40,697 nucleotides of DNA from a virus: UHGV virus genome UHGV-1333064; one strand, given 5' to 3'. Below, one piece after another: positions 18,475 to 35,649 of the stretch; position 1 is the stretch's first letter; the number at the start of each line of letters is the position of its first letter. The translations under genes were made by a program, and so were the position numbers. The notes under the pieces were generated by a model. That model saw nothing but the letters and a program-made list of their open reading frames with translations. It did no database searches and was not told the origin of the DNA.

Positions 18475-19248
18475 TCAGGCGAGATAAGAATGAGGGTTGG
18501 GGAAGACGATTTCTTTGTAACAGCGGCAGTTCGGGAGCTCGCCAGCGTGACCGGTCATGCCGTCAAGCGTTGGAGGTCGGCCCCATTCGACAAACTTCCC
18601 TTCCATCTCTCGATGAGAATGCCGGACGTCGCCATCTTCGGCTGTACGCCAGATATAACCATTCGAGCCGATTGACAGCGCACGCGCCTGATCCAATGCA
18701 CCGGTTGCGCGCCCAAGCTCAGTCCGGGAGATAAGGTTCGCTCGTGAGCGTGACACGTCACCGGAAGCAGCTATCTCTTTCGCGAATGGCTCAGCGCGGC
18801 CACCAGTTACTACAGCCTCGATGGCCTTGTTCTGAATGTCATACACCCGATCGGCGGCCTCAAGAGGCAGAGATTTGATGTACTTAATTTGCTCGGCGAC
18901 GATGGATTTCATCACCTGGCCTACCGGGGCGCGGTCGACCATGTTGCGTAGTTCTGCGCTGATGTTCCGACTGTGCTGACGCCACTGCTTTTCATTCTGG
19001 CGCGCAATGTCGGCGGTGAAGCTCTCAGCAACCTTAGTCGCCCAGGGGGTGATGATTTCGCTGTAGCGCTCCAGCGCATCCATTATTTCGGTGACGCTAT
19101 CGTTTGAACCATCGTAGCGACCATTTACGATATCCCCGACTGCCCGCGCTATCTGCCGTAGGCTCGTTCGATATCGGATCTCCGCCTGGCGGCTCTGGCG
19201 GTTTGTCGCCAAGTTCGCCGATGCCTGGCGGCGCTTCGTCTTCGGCAT
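18475..19248 (-). CDS. phage head morphogenesis protein (minor head protein, Mu F / SPP1 gp7 family)
   Basis: 257-aa ORF directly downstream of the portal gene with a basic N-terminus. Overlaps the portal 3' end by about 150 nt in the track, so the true start may be internal. Confidence 0.6.
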   Translation of the reverse strand: MPKTKRRQASANLATNRQSRQAEIRYRTSLRQIARAVGDIVNGRYDGSNDSVTEIMDALERYSEIITPWATKVAESFTADIARQNEKQWRQHSRNISAELRNMVDRAPVGQVMKSIVAEQIKYIKSLPLEAADRVYDIQNKAIEAVVTGGRAEPFAKEIAASGDVSRSRANLISRTELGRATGALDQARALSIGSNGYIWRTAEDGDVRHSHREMEGKFVEWGRPPTLDGMTGHAGELPNCRCYKEIVFPNPHSYLA

Positions 19249-20566
19249 TCTCTATGTCCTCGTCGGTAATGGATGCCCCGATGCCGGTGACGTCAGAGTT
19301 TTCGCGCAGGTCGGTCATCGCCGCCTTACGCGTCATCAATCCGTCGCCCAGCGCGGTACTGATCGCGTTGGTGGTGTTTACGGCCACCGTTGATCGGTCA
19401 ACGTCTGACATTTGCCATAGCGGGTTAAACTCAAACGTGAAATCGTCCGGCAGCGGCTTTCCGAGTTCCGAGCGGTGCATAATGTCCAGTATCCGGCGCA
19501 TCGGCAGCCGTAAGCGGCGCTCCTGCAATGAGCTCACCCGGTCGTAATAGTTGGCGAGGTCTGCATCACCAGTAGAGAAGCCTTTCGGGGATTGACCGAA
19601 CAGGCGTACCAGCGGGATACCAACGGCACCGCTGATCTGCTCAGCAAACTGCGAAAGAATGTCATCCAGACCACTAAAGCTGTACTGGTGGGTTTCGAAC
19701 TTATCCCGCGAGTCCATGAGCGTCATACCTTCATTGCTCTGGAACTGGCGGATCAGGTCGATGTTCTTCAGCAACGCTTCGAACGCCGGGCCTCCAAGCG
19801 CGATAAGCTCGCGCAACTTCTCCACGCTATAGGTACGCAGATGCGCTTTATATACCAGCTGCGCCGCGCCGACAGTAGCGCTATCGAACGCAGTAAGCCG
19901 ATCCCAGATACGCTCTACAACCGACATTCCCCATTCGTTTTCGGTCATCTTCTGCTGGAATGGCAGCGTGACGCCATCAAAGCGGATCAGGCGGCTGTGA
20001 TGGATGCGCCAGGCCGGAATGCCCGTTGCGGTGGTCACCACGTCGTAAAACTCAGGCTTGCCGAGGTCCGGCCCCATCTCTTTAATGCGGCGTGTCAGCA
20101 CCGGGTTAATCATCCAGCGGTCGAGCGGGAGAATGCCCTTAAACTTGCCCTCGCCAATGGTTTCGAGTCGCAGCGGGGTCATTGGTGCTTGCCCCTCGAT
20201 CATGATGAAGCCGACCGCGCCGCCGTAGAGGCGCGACCATTTCAGCACGTCGTTCAGCGCATCCCAGATCTGCAACTCATCCAGTTGCGCTTCGAGGGTG
20301 CCACGGTCTTTGGCGTCAATCTCCGAAGTGATGCGAATGCCCTTTCGGGTCATATCGTCCGGGATAGCGTCGACCGCTTCACCGATAACCCACGAACCGC
20401 GATATGACCATTCCACCAGCATGCGGTTGCGGCTGGTGAAGTTCGCCCGGTAGGTCGATGCAGAGTGCTGATTAGGCGTCTGCATCCCCACGCGGGCGAC
20501 AAAGTTCTCATAGCCATCAGCGGTGGCCTGCGCCGTTCGCTGAGAGGCTTGCTTGTTTCGTGCCAT
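19097..20566 (-). CDS. portal protein
   Basis: Track ORF 19097..20593 starts at TTG; the ATG at 20564-20566 (MARNKQ) has GGGAGG 9 nt upstream and overlaps the TerL stop (TGATG). About 490 aa, directly after TerL. Confidence 0.75.
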   Translation of the reverse strand: MARNKQASQRTAQATADGYENFVARVGMQTPNQHSASTYRANFTSRNRMLVEWSYRGSWVIGEAVDAIPDDMTRKGIRITSEIDAKDRGTLEAQLDELQIWDALNDVLKWSRLYGGAVGFIMIEGQAPMTPLRLETIGEGKFKGILPLDRWMINPVLTRRIKEMGPDLGKPEFYDVVTTATGIPAWRIHHSRLIRFDGVTLPFQQKMTENEWGMSVVERIWDRLTAFDSATVGAAQLVYKAHLRTYSVEKLRELIALGGPAFEALLKNIDLIRQFQSNEGMTLMDSRDKFETHQYSFSGLDDILSQFAEQISGAVGIPLVRLFGQSPKGFSTGDADLANYYDRVSSLQERRLRLPMRRILDIMHRSELGKPLPDDFTFEFNPLWQMSDVDRSTVAVNTTNAISTALGDGLMTRKAAMTDLRENSDVTGIGASITDEDIENAEDEAPPGIGELGDKPPEPPGGDPISNEPTADSAGSRGYRKWSLRWFKR

Positions 20567-22011
20567 CAGGCTTGCCTCCCGAGCAATTCCCAAATATCCA
20601 TTGTTGTATCGGTCGGCGCGAACGCCATTATGAAAGCGTCGGCAATGTTAGGTGAGGGGATATCGCGCTTAGCCAAATCTTTCTTGCTTTCAACCATAAC
20701 CCTACCGTTACGATCAAAGTCTCGGTGCGGGGTCGTCAGCTCAAGCTTTAGTTTCTCCAGGTGCGGGCACGATGAATCGATACTTATCAACTCATCAACA
20801 GGATATTCCTCTCCATTTTTCACCGCGTTGAACGTATTACGAAAGCGATCAGCTACCAGCCACCATGCCTGGGCTTTCAGATTGGCAAAGAAGTCTTTAT
20901 TCGGAATGCCGTTATATTCAGAATCTGGCTCGTTCACACCAGCGCCAGCATTGAAGCGTTGATAATTAACTGGTCGTGAATAAGGATTTTCACGTCGTCT
21001 GTCTTCGTTAATTTCCGAGAATTTAGCACCAGCAGAAGCGCCAACACCAATGGAGTCATAAACGATATCAGCACTTCTCTCTGTGGCTGCCTGATATGCC
21101 CGCTGGCAGCTTTTAAGAAGCTCGTCTTCTTTTGCCTTCCATTCATCAGCCCAATACACAACGGAGCCATGACGATAAACATTGGAGCACTTATCCGCAC
21201 CGCTATCGGCAACGTCGAAGCCTATTCGCTTTCGTCCGTTTGGCTCAAAACCAAGCACCTTATGGGCATCTATTGCAGCCTCAATCCACGAAAGTTTAAT
21301 AATTGCCGCGTCATCATCAGATTCGGGAACCCCCATATAAACGTGGTCAAACCCCTCCGGATCACGACGCTTTGCAGCCGAGATAACCTTAAGCATGGTG
21401 TCTGAGAGGAATGGGTTTTCGTCGTAATTGATTTTTCTCACCAACGTATCTTCTGGTGGATCAACAACGAAATTACGCCATACAAAGTCAGTCACCAGAC
21501 CAGGGTTAAAAATAAACCAGCATTCAGATCCGCTTTTACGAATGGTTGGTTCCAGTATCTTCCACTGGTATTCCGTTAGTGCATGGGCTTCTTCAAGCCA
21601 CAAAACGCTGATACCTTCCAGGGATTTAATTTCTTCGATATTGCGCCATAAACCGTAAAACACGAATTCTGAGCCAGTGACCCGGTTGATAATTTTATTA
21701 TTCAGAATTCGGAAGCGATGCCGCAGCCCAAACCGTTCAATCTGTATTTTGAGCAGGGTATAAACCGACTCTTCGATTTTGTTCTGAATTTGACGTGCGC
21801 AACAGAAACGCAGGTTGTATTTATTTGCCAGAAAGACAGCAAACCCAGCAGCATCCCATGACTTTGACGATGAGCGCCCACCAAAAAGTACTTTATTTCG
21901 AGCCTGTGTCGTCCAGAAGTTCCTTAGAGCCGGATTCAGGGTCGGTTTGGATGTCAGAGTAGAAGTCATTAAGGTCACGATCTCCATTACCGTCATCAAC
22001 GCCAGCATCAC
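20566..22011 (-). CDS. terminase large subunit
   Basis: ATPase Walker A (VLFGGRSSSKS) near the N-terminus plus a C-terminal nuclease-type region. Track ORF starts at GTG; the true start may be an internal Met (for example MTSTL at 21969). Overlaps the TerS gene 3' end. Confidence 0.85.
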   Translation of the reverse strand: MMLALMTVMEIVTLMTSTLTSKPTLNPALRNFWTTQARNKVLFGGRSSSKSWDAAGFAVFLANKYNLRFCCARQIQNKIEESVYTLLKIQIERFGLRHRFRILNNKIINRVTGSEFVFYGLWRNIEEIKSLEGISVLWLEEAHALTEYQWKILEPTIRKSGSECWFIFNPGLVTDFVWRNFVVDPPEDTLVRKINYDENPFLSDTMLKVISAAKRRDPEGFDHVYMGVPESDDDAAIIKLSWIEAAIDAHKVLGFEPNGRKRIGFDVADSGADKCSNVYRHGSVVYWADEWKAKEDELLKSCQRAYQAATERSADIVYDSIGVGASAGAKFSEINEDRRRENPYSRPVNYQRFNAGAGVNEPDSEYNGIPNKDFFANLKAQAWWLVADRFRNTFNAVKNGEEYPVDELISIDSSCPHLEKLKLELTTPHRDFDRNGRVMVESKKDLAKRDIPSPNIADAFIMAFAPTDTTMDIWELLGRQA

Positions 22012-22675
22012 GACGAAGGCGATCCGCTTCCAGAGACACTTTGTCAGTGGAGGCGAGCCGATGCTCTATAGATGCCTTTGTGAATTCCAGCGACTCAATG
22101 CGGGCCGTGTTACGGTGCATGGCTTTTTGCGCAGATGAAATTAGCTCGTGAAGATTATTGGCGGTATCGCCATCAGCTATTTCAAGCTCAGTCTGCCAGC
22201 GGCCAATATTTTCAGCAGCGGTAAGGTTCGCCGCACGCAACCAGAAAAGCTCATCGTCGAGCGTGAGCAGCTTCGCATCTTCGGTGATTGCATCAGAGAG
22301 CAGCATCCTGCGACCGTAGCCGCCGTGCTTAAGGGCATTCTGGTTGCCAGGCTGGAAAGGAGGGTGGTTGGTGACTACGTTCCTGCGCACACGTTCGGGT
22401 TTCGTATCTGGAGGATTCGCAGCATTGGAGGATTCGCAATCACCATCAGATGGCTTGCTACCTCTGGCCTTATCGCCTTTTTTTGCCTGCGAATTCGCAG
22501 TTTTATTCGCACTTTTCTTTTGCGAATTCGCACTACCATTCGCAATTTTGATATAGCGCTTTGCAGTCGAGTAATTCAGTCCCTGCGCTTCGCACCATTC
22601 TTTGGGGGAAATGCCGGTTTTGGCATGTTCGGACAGGAACCGTTGCTGAAGCTCGCCCCAGTCCGGCTTTGCCAT
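21893..22675 (-). CDS. terminase small subunit
   Basis: 260-aa ORF immediately upstream of TerL. N-terminal HTH-like region, an NALKHGGY motif that I recall from phage small terminases, and a low-complexity linker (SANSQKKSANKTANSQAKKG). Confidence 0.65.
   Translation of the reverse strand: MAKPDWGELQQRFLSEHAKTGISPKEWCEAQGLNYSTAKRYIKIANGSANSQKKSANKTANSQAKKGDKARGSKPSDGDCESSNAANPPDTKPERVRRNVVTNHPPFQPGNQNALKHGGYGRRMLLSDAITEDAKLLTLDDELFWLRAANLTAAENIGRWQTELEIADGDTANNLHELISSAQKAMHRNTARIESLEFTKASIEHRLASTDKVSLEADRLRRDAGVDDGNGDRDLNDFYSDIQTDPESGSKELLDDTGSK
22410..22544. repeat. cluster of ATTCGCA repeats and 12-14-bp palindromes inside the TerS gene (candidate pac region)
   Basis: Six copies of ATTCGCA at 22415, 22432, 22493, 22505, 22526 and 22538; tandem GGAGGATTCGCA x2 (22410-22438); palindromes CTGCGAATTCGCAG (22487-22500) and TGCGAATTCGCA (22521-22532). 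Confidence 0.5.
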
Positions 22676-22985: not shown

Positions 22986-23366
22986 TCAGTGTGCAGGTAG
23001 TTCCCCATCAGCAACTTTCTGGGCGTAGTAATCAAGGATGTCTTCGATGACCGCTATTCCTGACGGTTTGAGCCCCTCATACTTCCCTATTGATGCGAAA
23101 TACGAAGGGCGCTCAGGATTGTAGATATCGAGCATCCGAAAGAACTTCATCTCCACTGCGTCAGCATCCATATTGTCGGCCATAAAATATGACGTGAACA
23201 TCGACGCCAGGCAGTCAGCATCTATCAGAATGTCGCCAAATTCAGAACGGTATATGGGTTGCCGGTGTTTCGCAGTTTGCATGATGACGAACTCCTCACA
23301 GACCTGCCTGGCCATGGGGAATTTTTCTGGTGAGTATGGATTCACGGCCACCTCACGCAGCAGCAT
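22986..23366 (-). CDS. hypothetical protein
   Basis: 126-aa ORF between the KilA-N gene and TerS on the late strand; start uncertain. Confidence 0.35.
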   Translation of the reverse strand: MLLREVAVNPYSPEKFPMARQVCEEFVIMQTAKHRQPIYRSEFGDILIDADCLASMFTSYFMADNMDADAVEMKFFRMLDIYNPERPSYFASIGKYEGLKPSGIAVIEDILDYYAQKVADGELPAH

Positions 23367-24081
23367 AGAGCAATTTCATCTGCCCTTTTACCGGGAATGC
23401 CGACATGCAGCGCGCTTCGAAATCACGATAATCAGAGCACCCATTGGCAATGCTGGTAACGGCAATGATCTGTCGCTCAACCAATGTCAGCGCGTCAGGT
23501 TTAAGGTGCTGATGGATTTTATCTCCCGCAGCCAGGCGTCTTTTAACCTCTGCATACACTTCTGGTGGTAATACCGGGCCATATACCCACTTTGCGCTGA
23601 TCATCCCAAAAAGTGCGGGGCGACGACCTGGCCTATGACGAGGCAGTCCTGACATTTTGAACATTGCAGAATAAAACGGATCGCTAAACCTCTTTTCCCA
23701 TGGCTGAGATTTATCCAGAAGGAAAATAGCCTTTATTCTTTCATCGTCGATATGATGAACGGAACCCTGAATGATTGCGTCAATTTGCTCATCACACCAG
23801 ATCTCAAAATCTACAGAAAGCCATCGAGCAAATCTGACCGCCAGTTTTGGGTGAAGCCATGTTCCGCCGCCACGGTCTTTGCGAGCGCGGCTGGTTTTTA
23901 CATATGTGATATTCCCATATCTACTCTTTAGCGCCTCGATGTAACGAACAGTCTCAGGAAGCCTAAGCCACTGAGCTGGCTCCTTGTTGAACTTGTCAGC
24001 CGCCGCAGTCGCGTCAAACCAGCCATCGTCAGAAAAACGCATTGGATGGCCTTCGAAATCAATCGGGATGATATTAGACAT
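23353..24081 (-). CDS. KilA-N domain protein
   Basis: Track ORF trimmed to MSNIIPIDFEGHPMRF...; the N-terminal region has the fold-typical motifs I associate with KilA-N DNA-binding domains, followed by a C-terminal extension. Confidence 0.6.
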   Translation of the reverse strand: MSNIIPIDFEGHPMRFSDDGWFDATAAADKFNKEPAQWLRLPETVRYIEALKSRYGNITYVKTSRARKDRGGGTWLHPKLAVRFARWLSVDFEIWCDEQIDAIIQGSVHHIDDERIKAIFLLDKSQPWEKRFSDPFYSAMFKMSGLPRHRPGRRPALFGMISAKWVYGPVLPPEVYAEVKRRLAAGDKIHQHLKPDALTLVERQIIAVTSIANGCSDYRDFEARCMSAFPVKGQMKLLYAAA

Positions 24082-24245
24082 CGTATTTACCTTTTTGGTG
24101 ATATGAGCCAGTTCTCGCAGACATGGACAGCCCAAGAGCGGCACGATGTAAGCCACCGTCCTGTCTCTGTCTCATACCCCGAAAAGCTCTTGGTTGATAT
24201 GCGCACGAGAATGCGCGGGTTTACTGCAGGCGTAAAAAAGCCCCG

Positions 24246-31053: not shown

Positions 31054-32489
31054 CAGAACCCCCCTTTCTTTTTCGGCTGCTGCTCGCGCCCGCGGCGTTC
31101 TGCGGCGGCGGCCTGCTGGTCTGTGTCGTAAATTGCCCCGTTGATCTGATTGCAATAAACCGTTCCGGTACTGCCGTGGCGGTTGAGTCGCAGGATTAAC
31201 TCGGTTTCTCCAGGCGGCACGCTGTCATCGAAAGCACCTTCCCGGTGGATGCCAACCCAGTAGTCGCAGTCCTGCTCAATCTGTCCTGTGTCGCGGGAAT
31301 CGCTCGGCAACGGGCGTTTATTCACTCGCTTCTCCAGTTCGCGGTTGAGCTGGGTCAGCAGCACGACGACGCAGGCAAGCTCTTTGGCGAGGTTCTTCAA
31401 CCCTTTGGTGATCATCCCGTAGGCCAGGTCATTACGGTCGGCTTTTTCGGCTGTCATCAGCGTCAGGTAGTCAACCAGGATCATGCCTACGCAGCCCTTC
31501 TCGCGTTTGATTCGGCGGCTTTCGCTAACGATGTGCGCCAGTGACAGTCCCGGAGTGTCGTCGATGTACAGCATGTCGATTTCACTCAGCCGGCCAGCTG
31601 TAGCGATCGCCTTCTTAAAGTCTCCGTCGTAGTCGCCCTGGTACTGGTCATCGGCGTCATCCGTGGCGGGCATGTAAAAAATGCTCGGATTTACGCCGGA
31701 CTTCTGACCAACCAGTTTTTCGAGGATCTGGTAGCCCGGCATTTCAAGGCTGAACATCAGCGCTGGCTTTTTCTCACGAACCGCGCAGTTGATCGCCATC
31801 TGACCGTACAGGGTTGTCTTGCCCATCTTTGGCCTTGCGCCAATCACGAACAGAGAGCCTTTAACCAGACCTTTCGGCGCCAGCAGCCGGTCGAGTGACG
31901 GGATGCCGGTGCTCATGCCGCGCTGTTCGCCTGAAGGGTCAAAGCGTTTCTCCAGATCTGCTACCCAGTCATCCATAACCTCGCCGAACGACCGCAACCC
32001 ACGGCGACTACCGGTTTTTGAATGGTCTGCGAGCTGGGTGAAAATACCCTGAATGGCCTCGTACTTCTGCGTGGCGCTCATGCCATTGCGGGAATACAGC
32101 AGCTCAGTAGCTTCGGTCAGGCGGCTGATACCGTAGCGCTCCATTGCGGCTTCCCGGACTGACGCAGCGTATGCCACGATGTTTGCAGCGCTGGGAGTGT
32201 TCTTGGCTATCTCCGCCAGGTAAGCAAAGCCACCTACCTGCTCAGCGAGTCCTTTTCCTTCAAGCGCGTCGAACAATGTCAGGCCATCGACTGGCTTGTT
32301 GTCGCGGAACATCTGGCGCATCTCGGCAAAGATCAGCTGGTGAGGTCGGCTGTAAAACGACTCAGGCTTGAGCATCGCCAGAACCTTCTGGACTCGCTCG
32401 CTGTTGTCATCATCCAGCAGCAGGCCACCGATAACGCTCTGCTCTGCTTCGAGGTTTTGTGGTACGGCCATGAAATCAGCGGTCATCAC
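31053..32489 (-). CDS. dnaB: replicative DNA helicase, DnaB family
   Basis: 478-aa protein with Walker A (GARPKMGKTT), DnaB-type motifs (LFSLEMP, IDDTPG, LVDYLTLM) and an N-terminal DnaB-like domain (SVIGGLLLD). Confidence 0.9.
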   Translation of the reverse strand: MMTADFMAVPQNLEAEQSVIGGLLLDDDNSERVQKVLAMLKPESFYSRPHQLIFAEMRQMFRDNKPVDGLTLFDALEGKGLAEQVGGFAYLAEIAKNTPSAANIVAYAASVREAAMERYGISRLTEATELLYSRNGMSATQKYEAIQGIFTQLADHSKTGSRRGLRSFGEVMDDWVADLEKRFDPSGEQRGMSTGIPSLDRLLAPKGLVKGSLFVIGARPKMGKTTLYGQMAINCAVREKKPALMFSLEMPGYQILEKLVGQKSGVNPSIFYMPATDDADDQYQGDYDGDFKKAIATAGRLSEIDMLYIDDTPGLSLAHIVSESRRIKREKGCVGMILVDYLTLMTAEKADRNDLAYGMITKGLKNLAKELACVVVLLTQLNRELEKRVNKRPLPSDSRDTGQIEQDCDYWVGIHREGAFDDSVPPGETELILRLNRHGSTGTVYCNQINGAIYDTDQQAAAAERRGREQQPKKKGGF

Positions 32490-33381
32490 GATCCCCCTCG
32501 CGCACTTCGATGTAGAGCTTTTCGGTCAGGAACTTATCGAATTTCATGCGGCGCCAGGTCTTCCCGGATTTCTGGTCTGGTCGGTCTTCAAGCATCCATC
32601 GGCAGTTCTGAGCGATGTAACGCAGATAACTTCTGAAACCGTCCATGTCCATCGGCTTGCCGTCCAGGTTGCGGGCAATTTTGTTAGCCTTACCCCAGAA
32701 TGTGCGGATCAGATTGCGTCGCTCATCAGTGAGGCATCTCCATCCCCTGGCTTCAGGCAGTTCGTCTTTCAGGCATTGCCACACTTCATCGCATGACAAA
32801 CGAGACTTTTTCTCTTCAGCGGGTTTCTGGTCATTTGCGACATACTTACTACCGTTAGGTAGTAAGTTATTTAATATATTGTTATCTGTGGACACTGGCT
32901 GGACATCGGCTGGACACTCCACCTCCACAGGCATTGATATAACTGCGTTTGCGCTGGACACCGGCTGGACATCGGCTGGACAAAAATTTGACTGATATTC
33001 GTCATATTTGACCACTTTTAGAACAGTAAAACGGTTGTTCGATTTGGTGGTGATCATGCCCAGGTTCTGGAATTTACGGAGCAGTGATTTAACGCGATCA
33101 GCGGTCAAACCCGTTTCCATTGCCAGCGTGTTTCGCCCGGTAATGAACTCTCCGCGCTCGCAGATCACATCGCCGACATCAGTAGATACCAGTGTCTGTT
33201 CGTGATTAGCACGCAGGAGCATGTGAACCCATAAATGAGCCGCCTCAGCGTCCTTGTAGAACGGCACATCCATAATTTTACGGTGCAGCAAGGCAAACCC
33301 CTTACCGTCATTCGTGCGCGGTTTCTGGAGCCTTCTGGCCTCTCTGGCTTCGGCTAAATTGGATACGTTACCCACGGCCAC
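32476..33381 (-). CDS. replication initiator, lambda O-like, with internal origin repeats
   Basis: 301-aa ORF immediately upstream of DnaB; contains iteron DNA that produces the repeated peptide PADVQPVS, as lambda O contains ori-lambda. Confidence 0.6.
   Translation of the reverse strand: MAVGNVSNLAEAREARRLQKPRTNDGKGFALLHRKIMDVPFYKDAEAAHLWVHMLLRANHEQTLVSTDVGDVICERGEFITGRNTLAMETGLTADRVKSLLRKFQNLGMITTKSNNRFTVLKVVKYDEYQSNFCPADVQPVSSANAVISMPVEVECPADVQPVSTDNNILNNLLPNGSKYVANDQKPAEEKKSRLSCDEVWQCLKDELPEARGWRCLTDERRNLIRTFWGKANKIARNLDGKPMDMDGFRSYLRYIAQNCRWMLEDRPDQKSGKTWRRMKFDKFLTEKLYIEVREGDRDDR
32886..33030. repeat. candidate origin of replication: six GGCTGGACA iterons in two triplets plus an AT-rich tract
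   Basis: TGGACA repeats at 32889, 32900, 32911 and 32955, 32966, 32977 (11-bp spacing within each triplet), followed by AAAAATTTGACTGATATTCGTCATATTTGACCACTTTTAGAACAGTAAAA. Confidence 0.6.
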
Positions 33382-34163: not shown

Positions 34164-34397
34164 TTAGGCCGCAGTATCACGCGGCGATGCGAATACCAGG
34201 CTTTCTTTTAGGACCGGAGCCTGGCGGTGAAAATTCTTCGTGCCTTTCTCGATAGCAGATGCCATTTCTGGAGATGCCCGGCGATTTCCGTAGGCGATCT
34301 GGTCCAGGTAACCTGGCGTCGTGTTAGCCAACTTTGCGAGCTGCGCCCATTCGTCGGTAGTGGCGGCCTTGCGCCAGCGGTGTAGTTCAGTGCTCAT
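34164..34397 (-). CDS. Cro/YdaS-like HTH regulator
   Basis: 77-aa ORF divergent from the repressor gene across the operator region; HTH-like segment EWAQLAKLANTTPGYLDQIAYGNRRASPEMASAIEKGT. Confidence 0.6.
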   Translation of the reverse strand: MSTELHRWRKAATTDEWAQLAKLANTTPGYLDQIAYGNRRASPEMASAIEKGTKNFHRQAPVLKESLVFASPRDTAA

Positions 34398-34429
34398 TGG
34401 TGTCTCCGGGTGAGTCGTTTGATTTGGAG

Positions 34430-34495
34430 TTTAGCGTTATGCTAAATACTACGCAAGCATCATTTAGCAATTTGCACATTTATCATTTTGCTAAA
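34430..34495. promoter_or_regulatory. right operator region: three 17-bp operators (6-5-6, half-site TTTAGC) between the divergent cro-like and cI-like genes
   Basis: O1 TTTAGCGTTATGCTAAA (34430-34446, perfect palindrome), O2 TTTAGCAATTTGCACAT (34463-34479), O3 TTTATCATTTTGCTAAA (34479-34495). Confidence 0.6.
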
Positions 34496-34513
34496 AGCAG
34501 TAACAATGCAGGT

Positions 34514-35191
34514 ATGGAAAATAAAGAAATCAGAAAAGCCAACCTGGAAGCGCTGTACGAGAAGCGTCAGCACGAGTCTGGAATGACCAAAGCGCAGTTT
34601 GCCGAGCTCATCGAGACAAGTCCGGCTGCGCTTAGCCAGCTACTGGGACCAAACCCTCATCGCAATATCGGCGATAAGATGGCTCGCAAAATTGAAACTG
34701 CGCTTGATCTGCCTTTTGGCTGGATGGATGTTTTACACGCCAGTGAAGAACCTTCGAACGTTGCATTTCGAGGACTGAACGAGACAAAAGGAAGTTATCC
34801 TGTAATCAGCTGGGTAAGCGCGGGGCAATGGATGGAAGCTGTAGAACCTTATCACCGAAGAGCGATAGATCGCTGGTATGACACGACTGTTGACTGCTCA
34901 GAAGATTCATTCTGGCTGGACGTTAAAGGGGATTCTATGACCTCCCCGGCTGGACTAAGCATACCCGAGGGAGCAGCGATACTTGTTGATCCTGAAGTCG
35001 AGCCGCGCAACGGAAAGCTGGTTGTCGCGAAGCTAGAAGGCGATAACGAAGCGACCTTTAAGAAGCTTGTAATCGATGCCGGCAGACGCTTCCTAAAGCC
35101 CCTTAACCCCGCATATCCAATGCTAGAAATTAATGGAAACTGCAAAATCATCGGCGTTGTGGTTGATGCCAAAATACTAAACATCCCATAA
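34514..35191 (+). CDS. CI-like repressor (N-terminal HTH, C-terminal LexA/S24 autopeptidase domain)
   Basis: Track ORF 34397 (TTG) trimmed to ATG 34514 (MENKEIRKANLEAL). C-terminal region parallels lambda cI (GDSMTSP, ILVDPEVEP, ATFKKLVIDAGRRFLKPLNPAYPM), so the S24 Ser/Lys dyad is likely present. Confidence 0.8.
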   Translation: MENKEIRKANLEALYEKRQHESGMTKAQFAELIETSPAALSQLLGPNPHRNIGDKMARKIETALDLPFGWMDVLHASEEPSNVAFRGLNETKGSYPVISWVSAGQWMEAVEPYHRRAIDRWYDTTVDCSEDSFWLDVKGDSMTSPAGLSIPEGAAILVDPEVEPRNGKLVVAKLEGDNEATFKKLVIDAGRRFLKPLNPAYPMLEINGNCKIIGVVVDAKILNIP

Positions 35192-35274: not shown

Positions 35275-35349
35275 TTAATCAATACGCTAAATAAAACCAT
35301 TCAATAATTTAGCATTTTGCTATTGCGCATAATTTAGCATCACGCTAAA
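35275..35349. promoter_or_regulatory. second operator cluster (left-operator-like): three 17-bp sites with TTTAGC/GCTAAA half-sites
   Basis: TTAATCAATACGCTAAA (35275-35291), TTTAGCATTTTGCTATT (35308-35324), TTTAGCATCACGCTAAA (35333-35349); same 6-5-6 architecture as the 34430-34495 cluster. Confidence 0.5.
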
Positions 35350-35649
35350 TTTACCCCATCGAAACGAAACATCGACAGCTGAGCGAAGTTAGCCAGCGGC
35401 GGACAGCAAGTCGCCTGCTCATTAAGAATTCAGTCAAGCAGCAAATCACCCGGAGCGCTCCTGGCAAATTGAAATGGCGCCCAATGGGATTGAGGCAGGT
35501 GTGTAACGCGTGGCGGGTATAGCACACGAAGAGGACTCCGCACCGGAATGGTTTGCTGCTCAGTTCCCGAACATCGGGGAAGCTTTACCAGCAGCTCTTT
35601 GCGAGGGGCTGACGGCAAATCTACTCCACTTATTTAAAAGAGACGGTAT

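Follow-up and report, generated by a model that had tools for sequence, protein, structure and literature searches.

A candidate pac site built of repeated words inside the small terminase gene of virus genome UHGV-1333064

The small terminase gene and its repeat array

We analysed a dense array of short repeats inside the small terminase gene (terS) of UHGV virus genome UHGV-1333064, a 40,697-nucleotide stretch of DNA referred to here as the window, as a candidate terminase recognition (pac) site. Table 1 lists the features of the locus. The gene is part of the window's lambdoid late region, which occupies the minus strand and runs in the order holin/lysozyme/Rz-like genes, KilA-N/P63C gene, two small open reading frames (ORFs), terS, the large terminase gene (terL) and the portal gene. 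The start codon of terL is marked as uncertain because the listed ORF overlaps terS. The large terminase, TerL, scored 143.9 bits against the PBSX family TIGR01547 (cutoff 105).

The 7-mer ATTCGCA occurs six times on the plus strand of the region (22415, 22432, 22493, 22505, 22526 and 22538) and twice on the minus strand (22488 and 22521), and 8 of the 17 hits in the whole 40.7-kb window fall inside 130 bp. The initial annotation had placed six copies within 22410-22544; all six were located there, and the two minus-strand copies are additions to them. It had also described two perfect palindromes of 12-14 bp. Both were recovered: TGCGAATTCGCA is a perfect 12-bp palindrome that stands at 22488-22499 and at 22521-22532, and the first of the two grows to 14 bp (CTGCGAATTCGCAG, 22487-22500) while the second stays at 12 bp. 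The palindrome centres (22491 and 22524) are EcoRI sites, GAATTC, 33 bp apart; the window contains 12 such sites. What had been called a tandem 17-bp repeat does have a period of 17 bp, but its identical part is 13 bases long (TGGAGGATTCGCA at 22409-22421 and 22426-22438, 17 bp from start to start). A 29-nt unit in two copies 33 bp apart (22488-22516 and 22521-22549, 83% identical) was missing from that earlier list.

We compared the cluster with the rest of the window by counting the most frequent 7-mer in each 135-bp span. The highest count was 8, given by the ATTCGCA cluster, followed by 5 (32891-33025) and then 4, and in 200 first-order Markov simulations of the window the maximum 7-mer count was 3 to 5. 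The cluster is far beyond chance, and the earlier statement that this repeat density is not matched elsewhere in the window was borne out.

Read in the sense of the gene, the array consists of four words (plus two inverted ones), the spacer and two more words. The words of array 1 start at terS nt 132, 144, 165 and 177, that is, with spacings of 12, 21 and 12 bp and a super-period of 33 bp. The second and fourth of them (nt 144 and 177) are lengthened to the TGCGAATTCGCA palindromes, 33 bp apart, and this gives rise to the two extra inverted copies. In array 2 the word at nt 238 lies in frame 0 and the one at nt 255 in frame 2, so that the same 13 bases are translated as C-E-S-S in one copy and as A-N-P-P in the other.

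The match of TerS to the phrog_370 profile is full-length (residues 1-252), and that family includes the small terminases of Shiga toxin (Stx)/933W-type phages; TerS is 33% identical to an Stx-phage TerS across 90% of its length. A single-sequence AlphaFold2 model was used for domain boundaries only. It contains helices at residues 6-20 and 24-30 and one from residue 35 (predicted local distance difference test score, pLDDT, 75-89), a predicted disordered linker at residues 45-124 (nearly all with pLDDT <50) and a long helical hairpin at residues 130-223 (pLDDT >95). The linker is basic and rich in K, A, N, S and Q, the core contains a coiled coil, and the tail is acidic. Pfam assigned no family to the whole protein, and the N-terminal fragment gave only a sub-threshold hit to HTH_23 (E = 0.15), so that the assignment of a helix-turn-helix (HTH) domain, with ...GLNYSTAKRYIK as its recognition-helix region, rests on a match to the PacA family (see below) and on the model. 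Searched by sequence against solved structures, TerS gave no significant hit, and a Foldseek search of the model against the PDB returned generic helical hairpins only, none at E ≤0.001.

The repeats occupy terS codons 44-89, directly 3' of the part that codes for the N-terminal three-helix domain, and the initial placement in the TerS linker agrees with the predicted disorder of this region. When 21 relatives were aligned, N-terminal domain, core and C-terminal tail each behaved as a module of its own, and columns 64-95 were hypervariable; the words therefore sit in a linker that is little constrained by the protein.

Table 1. Features of the terS locus and of the neighbouring late region (window coordinates)
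Feature	Position	Strand	Remarks
terS, small terminase gene, 260 aa	21893..22675	-	ORF; phrog_370 'terminase small subunit', E 1.9e-78
terS codons 1-43, PacA-like N-terminal HTH domain, presumed word reader	22547..22675	-	phrog_1711 match
Array 1	22488..22544	-	terS nt 132-188; four gene-sense TGCGAAT words
Spacer between arrays	22439..22487	.	49 bp; holds A7 tract
Array 2	22409..22438	-	terS nt 238-267; two TGCGAATCCTCCA copies 17 bp apart
terL, large terminase (nuclease/ATPase)	20566..22011	-	Pfam Terminase_3, E 8e-38; start codon uncertain
Portal gene, next in packaging module	19097..20593	-	Pfam Phage_portal_3, E 2.8e-105
KilA-N/P63C protein	23353-24156	-	late region
Holin, lysozyme, Rz-like ORFs	24.4-25.6 kb	-	late region

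Conservation of the words in relatives of terS

To compare conservation of the DNA with that of the peptide, we gathered 118 loci encoding TerS relatives, with 66 distinct genes in a subfamily referred to as group A (helix ending …[ST]AKRYIK; ∼55-94% amino acid identity). Codon usage in group A was examined at alignment columns where the amino acid is conserved and has at least four codons. Mean codon heterozygosity was 0.044 inside the array vs. 0.503 elsewhere in terS (Mann-Whitney p = 5.7e-6), and degenerate codons were invariant at 6 of 8 array columns vs. 1 of 87 columns elsewhere in the gene. The alanine codon of the words was GCG in 57/57, 63/63 and 65/65 genes, and the serine codon was TCG in 59/59 and 66/66. 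The third base could outlast the amino acid: it was T at codon 48 in all 65 genes even though six amino acids (G, S, T, V, N, A) are encoded there, at codon 55 in 59 of 64 genes with eight amino acids, and at codon 59 in 65 of 66 genes with five. In all three codons, the conserved T completes the word.

The density of TGCGAAT/ATTCGCA over the 66 loci was 23.3 per kb in terS nt 100-300 vs. 0.107 per kb in the ±3-kb flanks. Many relatives have the word at nt 132, 144, 165 and 177, and the palindromes at nt 144 and 177 are kept down to ∼60% amino acid identity. In several lineages with unrelated spacers, the word of the second array starts at exactly nt 238, as TGCGAAT, as the full palindrome or as a form with one mismatch. 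The initial annotation had raised the possibility that relatives keep a repetitive peptide whose codons drift synonymously; among the 66 relatives it is the DNA that is kept, and synonymous drift is almost absent from the array. The aligned genes thus indicate that the repeats are under selection at the DNA level, independent of the peptide, since the degenerate codons do not drift, the third base persists while the amino acid changes, the reading frame differs between copies and the word is local to the array. The perfect palindromes are without any peptide rationale.

Two contigs from IMG/VR (L289:4131-4174 and L292:790-833) have a gap of 20 bp, not 21, between the palindromes, which results in a frameshift of terS. 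Either these are sequencing errors or terS is a pseudogene in these contigs; both palindromes are still present.

P1 pac, other terminase subfamilies and satellite-like islands

The pac site of phage P1 is a 161-bp segment inside pacA with seven hexamers, in groups of four (HEX4) and three (HEX3), and synonymous recoding of the hexamers lowered the phage titre ∼9-fold (PMC10028697; PMC11260489). In the pacA record, the TGATCA/G words stand at nt 194, 201, 213 and 228 and at nt 324, 336 and 347; an integration host factor (IHF) site (nt 256-268) and the pac cuts (nt 276-285) lie between the two word clusters. P1-like loci served as the positive control for the conservation analysis: 4 of 42 bases were variable in the hexamers vs. 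51 of 209 around them, and a PacA relative at 70% identity kept six hexamers in place. TerS residues 6-80 matched phrog_1711 (E = 2.9e-7), the family to which P1 PacA belongs (E = 4e-202), and in the reverse direction PacA matched phrog_370 (E = 1.9e-4). These profile matches indicate that the N-terminal domain of TerS is remotely homologous to that of P1 PacA.

The terS array resembles P1 pac in several respects. Both lie inside the gene of the recognition subunit, 3' of its N-terminal HTH part (terS nt 132-261; pacA nt 194-352), and in both two clusters of words flank a spacer, with four and three TGATCA/G words in P1 and with four plus two inverted and then two TGCGAAT words here. A word spacing of ∼12 bp, the use of more than one reading frame and a stronger conservation of the words than of their surroundings are also common to the two. 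In contrast to P1, the word is a different one and partly palindromic, it is without GATC and so without Dam control, and no IHF consensus accompanies it. The spacer measures 49 bp as compared to ∼90 bp in P1, and neither the phrog_370 core of TerS nor TerL is related to its P1 counterpart (PacA and PacB, respectively).

We examined other terminase subfamilies that have a PacA-like N-terminal domain. In each of them a word array follows directly after the HTH-coding part, and the word differs from one subfamily to the next. Group A (xAKRYIK) has TGCGAA, within TGCGAAT. Group B (…ARRYIKK), mostly fused to a Terminase_2-like core, has TGCGCA in 5-7 copies that lie in up to three frames. The GTACGCA words of group C (…GAIRKRAKK) are arranged as five direct and one inverted copy, a gap and two more copies, and are read as G-T-Q and as V-R-K/T. 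One further gene (L008; …TAINKRAKD) has GGAAAC, twice inverted and three times direct, in three frames. Stx/P27-type genes (…TARTRIK) have four copies of GATCAT exactly 12 bp apart and then TGCGCAAA twice, and P1 itself (…TARRYLR) has TGATCA. In 215/215 distinct genes the word followed the HTH subtype and was independent of the C-terminal type: three C-terminal types were seen in group A, and words of groups A, C and D all accompany the C-terminal type 'NDFYSDIQ'. In loci L012-L036 (for example L012:3001-3996), a PacA-like N-terminal domain with its TGCGCA array is fused to a ∼330-aa core of the phrog_51 type, whose residues 76-280 resemble TerS of Pseudomonas, Burkholderia and Bacillus phages; reader and site would therefore have moved together, as one module, between unrelated TerS scaffolds.

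The Stx phage vB_EcoP_phi345 (L119:1642-1766, terS nt 142-266) has four YGATCAT words exactly 12 bp apart, encoding IDHEIDHKTDHEIDH, and after these GATC words two copies of TGCGCAAA at nt 235 and 259. Its TerS is of the same type as that of EDL933-Stx/933W-like phages. This array looks like a P1-like candidate pac site with Dam sites, of which no description was found in the literature searched. The literature search likewise returned no described pac site for Stx/933W-type phages and nothing on TGCGAATTCGCA or on PacA-like small terminases.

Words of this kind also occur outside terminase genes. A scan of IMG/VR for the double palindrome gave 101 stretches, of which 80 were taken as loci. 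The double palindrome stood directly after a group-A HTH in 76 of them and at a contig end in one; the remaining three had it elsewhere (L283:4172-4548, L314:10200-10580 and L307:9740-10030), in DNA where all six frames have stops. These stretches of ∼300-400 bp contain, in addition, 2-3 group B words (two of them 12 bp apart) and 2-3 group C words, against a chance expectation of ∼0.1-0.25 for each of the two word types. The homologous region L367:7362-7765 is an unannotated 404-bp gap in E. coli STN0717-20 (NZ_AP022482.1 70202-70605), in an island resembling phage-inducible chromosomal islands (PICIs) whose genes encode a TOPRIM/DUF927 primase, an Icd-like protein, PerC, SSB and an antirepressor. 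The satellite-like islands as a group carry an integrase, a TOPRIM/DUF927 primase, an Icd-like protein and PerC.

An ORF of 124-125 aa adjoins the composite word region. It aligns to TerS core residues 102-206 (hhalign 71%, E = 3.9e-5), shares the motif PF..GN.NA.KHG..RR with the core, and is without HTH and linker. We considered Rpp, a winged-HTH protein that works with cos helpers (PMC9026076), as the identity of the 124-aa satellite protein and dropped it in view of the alignment to the TerS core. As in the piracy of packaging sites by Staphylococcus aureus pathogenicity islands (SaPIs) and PICIs, the islands carry phage words in non-coding DNA, beside a small gene related to the TerS core. 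The E. coli PICIs described so far rely on Rpp together with a cos site and have cos helpers (PMC9026076; PMC6739421); the composite region of group A, B and C words sets the present islands apart from them, and no description of such a region was found in the literature searched. Words without coding context in helper-dependent elements fit a packaging signal that would be read in trans, and the composite region (TGCGAATTCGCA, TGCGCA and GTACGCA) may be a pac region that serves several helper types.

We tentatively propose that the HTH and its word array form one swappable 'packaging-specificity cassette' of ∼270 bp. Such a cassette would have spread among unrelated cores (phrog_370, Terminase_2-like phrog_51 and P1 PacA), its HTH-to-word code would allow the packaging specificity to be read from sequence, that of Shiga-toxin phages included, and satellite-like islands would exploit the code. 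We regard this wider proposal as possible rather than probable.

The pac reading and its alternatives

It is quite likely that the 137-bp segment 22409-22545 is the terminase recognition (pac) site of the prophage, located inside its own small terminase gene. Conservation at the DNA level, the P1-like layout and position, and the remote homology of the TerS N-terminus to PacA all argue in favour of the candidate pac site that had been proposed initially. Its best description is that of a bipartite pac site of the P1 type, made up of word arrays, with a new, partly palindromic word and without Dam or IHF elements. TerS would be the word-binding protein: several copies of the N-terminal HTH, brought together on a TerS oligomer, would bind the TGCGAAT words of array 1 (four direct and two inverted) and of array 2 (two). 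With both arrays bound, the spacer between them might be held or bent, and TerL, an enzyme of the PBSX/Terminase_3 type, would make its first cut in or near this spacer, which the analogy with P1 makes the likeliest zone of the first cut. P1 packaging runs from pac along the direction of pacA transcription, toward lox, and other pac phages are alike in this. By the same analogy, packaging here would be headful and leftward, along the transcription of terS toward terL and the portal gene, that is, toward lower window coordinates.

TerL is 55% identical to the TerL of Pbunavirus phages, which were reported to package by a headful mechanism and to have circularly permuted DNA (PMC12390725), and it gave a partial match of 33% to TerL of phage ES18, a distant relative whose pac site is still unknown (PMC11260489). 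Headful packaging is favoured over cos-type packaging because TerL, judged by sequence, is of the PBSX/Terminase_3 type, near to that of Pbunavirus and distantly related to that of ES18.

Similar arrangements occur at other packaging sites. In SPP1/SF6, the pac boxes are bound by many HTH domains of the TerS (G1P) ring, and the site partly overlaps terS. The multipartite SPP1 pac (pacL, pacC and pacR) is like the present array in having short repeated boxes on both sides of the cut, and differs in its TerS family, in its box sequences and in the position of pacL upstream of the gene. A general description of SPP1/SF6 pac is given in PMC4737164. P22 pac also lies inside the small terminase gene (gene 3) of a lambdoid headful enterobacterial phage (PMC11260489); unlike the present site, it is a single asymmetric sequence of 17-22 bp without a word array, and the P22 TerS is unrelated. 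At lambda cosB, several TerS-binding words (R1-R3, bound by the winged HTH of gpNu1) adjoin the cut site (PMC9026076), but cosB is outside coding sequence, beside a fixed cosN with cohesive ends, and the lambda TerL belongs to another family.

Several observations weigh against a P1-type pac site. The homology to PacA is confined to ∼40-80 N-terminal residues, and the pairwise BLASTP alignment is collinear but weak (E = 0.044). TerL has no significant similarity to P1 PacB, so that only the reader domain is common with P1. Direct reading of the sequence found no GATC in 22400-22560, and a search of 22380-22580 on both strands found no match to the IHF consensus WATCAANNNNTTR within one mismatch, the A7 tract of the spacer being all that is present. 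Some group-A relatives are without a recognisable second array, and the bipartite form is common, not universal. The array abuts the HTH-coding DNA, so that the link between word and HTH could in part reflect co-inheritance, and this link rests on only about six independent lineages. The record starts of related phages (RothC/D, Chronis, Mulock, RCIP0034 and Stx phages) fall on gene boundaries or lie 29-454 nt upstream of terS; they seem to have been chosen by annotators rather than to be termini, and are uninformative. The mRNA of the region also folds better than shuffled sequences (z = -2.77), a point taken up below.

We considered a cosB-type site, at which TerS would bind the words and TerL would nick a fixed cosN-like sequence to give cohesive ends instead of headful packaging. 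Lambda cosB also consists of TerS-binding repeats (R sites) near the cut (PMC9026076), and the annotation of an Stx phage whose TerS is of this family uses the two terms 'circularly permutated' and 'cohesive ends', so that the records leave the family's packaging mode unsettled. The lambda-type features are missing here, however: TerL is of the Terminase_3/PBSX type and not of the lambda GpA type, its nearest characterised relatives were reported to be headful, with ES18 as a distant relative, and the array is within coding sequence as in P1, not upstream of the gene. We regard a cosB-type site as unlikely. The words might instead be operators for another DNA-binding protein, such as a late-gene or host regulator, or elements of an mRNA structure that tunes the translation of terS and terL. 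Two perfect 12-bp palindromes three helical turns apart do resemble paired operators, and the folding of the mRNA together with a terminator-like hairpin on the plus strand (22487-22500) would suit a role in RNA. Against these readings, the word tracks the HTH subtype of TerS and not the rest of the genome, a promoter scan detected no promoter-like site, and the predicted RNA pairs run between array 1 and array 2, the second of which many relatives lack or have in a different form. The P1 precedent accounts for all of the features, and we consider a regulatory role of either kind very improbable.

The arrays could also be recombination junctions in the main, offering microhomology for the shuffling of terS modules. 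Over exactly 22488-22675, the window shares 99.5-100% identity with eight complete E. coli genomes (G3/10 and ABWA45 among them); the match covers the HTH-coding part and array 1 and diverges at the edge of array 1 (22488). Loci L039 and L045 have the window's linker (spacer and array 2) with another HTH-coding variant. From these two patterns, the arrays coincide with mosaic junctions. Recombination leaves the strict synonymous conservation, the orientation and spacing of the words and the non-coding copies in the satellite-like islands unexplained, and as the main cause of the repeats it is slightly less probable again than regulation; microhomology can stand beside the pac reading as a side effect, without replacing it. 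The least probable of the explanations considered is that the repeats are a by-product of a low-complexity linker peptide (…ANGSANSQKKSANKTANSQ…) that arose by in-frame duplication and has no function as DNA. The 33-bp unit is indeed in frame and encodes an 11-residue repeat, and both the predicted disorder and the composition of the linker would suit such an origin. Yet the degenerate codons of the words do not drift, the base before GCG is conserved while the amino acid varies, the copies of array 2 are in different frames, as are the words of other subfamilies (two or three frames), and the same words occur in the non-coding DNA of the satellite-like islands. We therefore rejected the peptide as the sole explanation.

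The pac sites that are known from experiments come from a handful of phages only. If the rule holds that a PacA-like HTH has a word array of its own directly after it, with another word for every HTH subtype, the start and the specificity of packaging could become predictable from sequence, and the rule would reach a large family of temperate enterobacterial phages, Stx-converting phages included. This would bear on the starting points of generalized and lateral transduction, on the range of satellites that a phage can mobilise, and on how packaging-defective or packaging-specific phage vectors are designed, a purpose for which the P1 hexamers have already been recoded synonymously. The terS array is also a clean natural case of a DNA signal that overrides the choice of codons and amino acids within a gene. 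Of all the results, the pattern of HTH and word across the family and the composite regions in the satellite-like islands most deserve to be followed up.

Two other sets of repeats were observed in the window. Clusters of TTTAGC…GCTAAA inverted repeats (for example TTTAGCGTTATGCTAAA and TTTAGCATCACGCTAAA) are found on both sides of a CI/LexA-like repressor ORF (34397-35191), at 34430-34495 and 35285-35350, and are presumably the immunity operators of the prophage. At 32889-32982, within the minus-strand ORF 32476-33381, two adjoining arrays with a period of 11 bp (TGGACACTGGC and GCTGGACACCG, 2.7 copies each) make up the second densest 7-mer cluster of the window (GCTGGAC, 5 copies).

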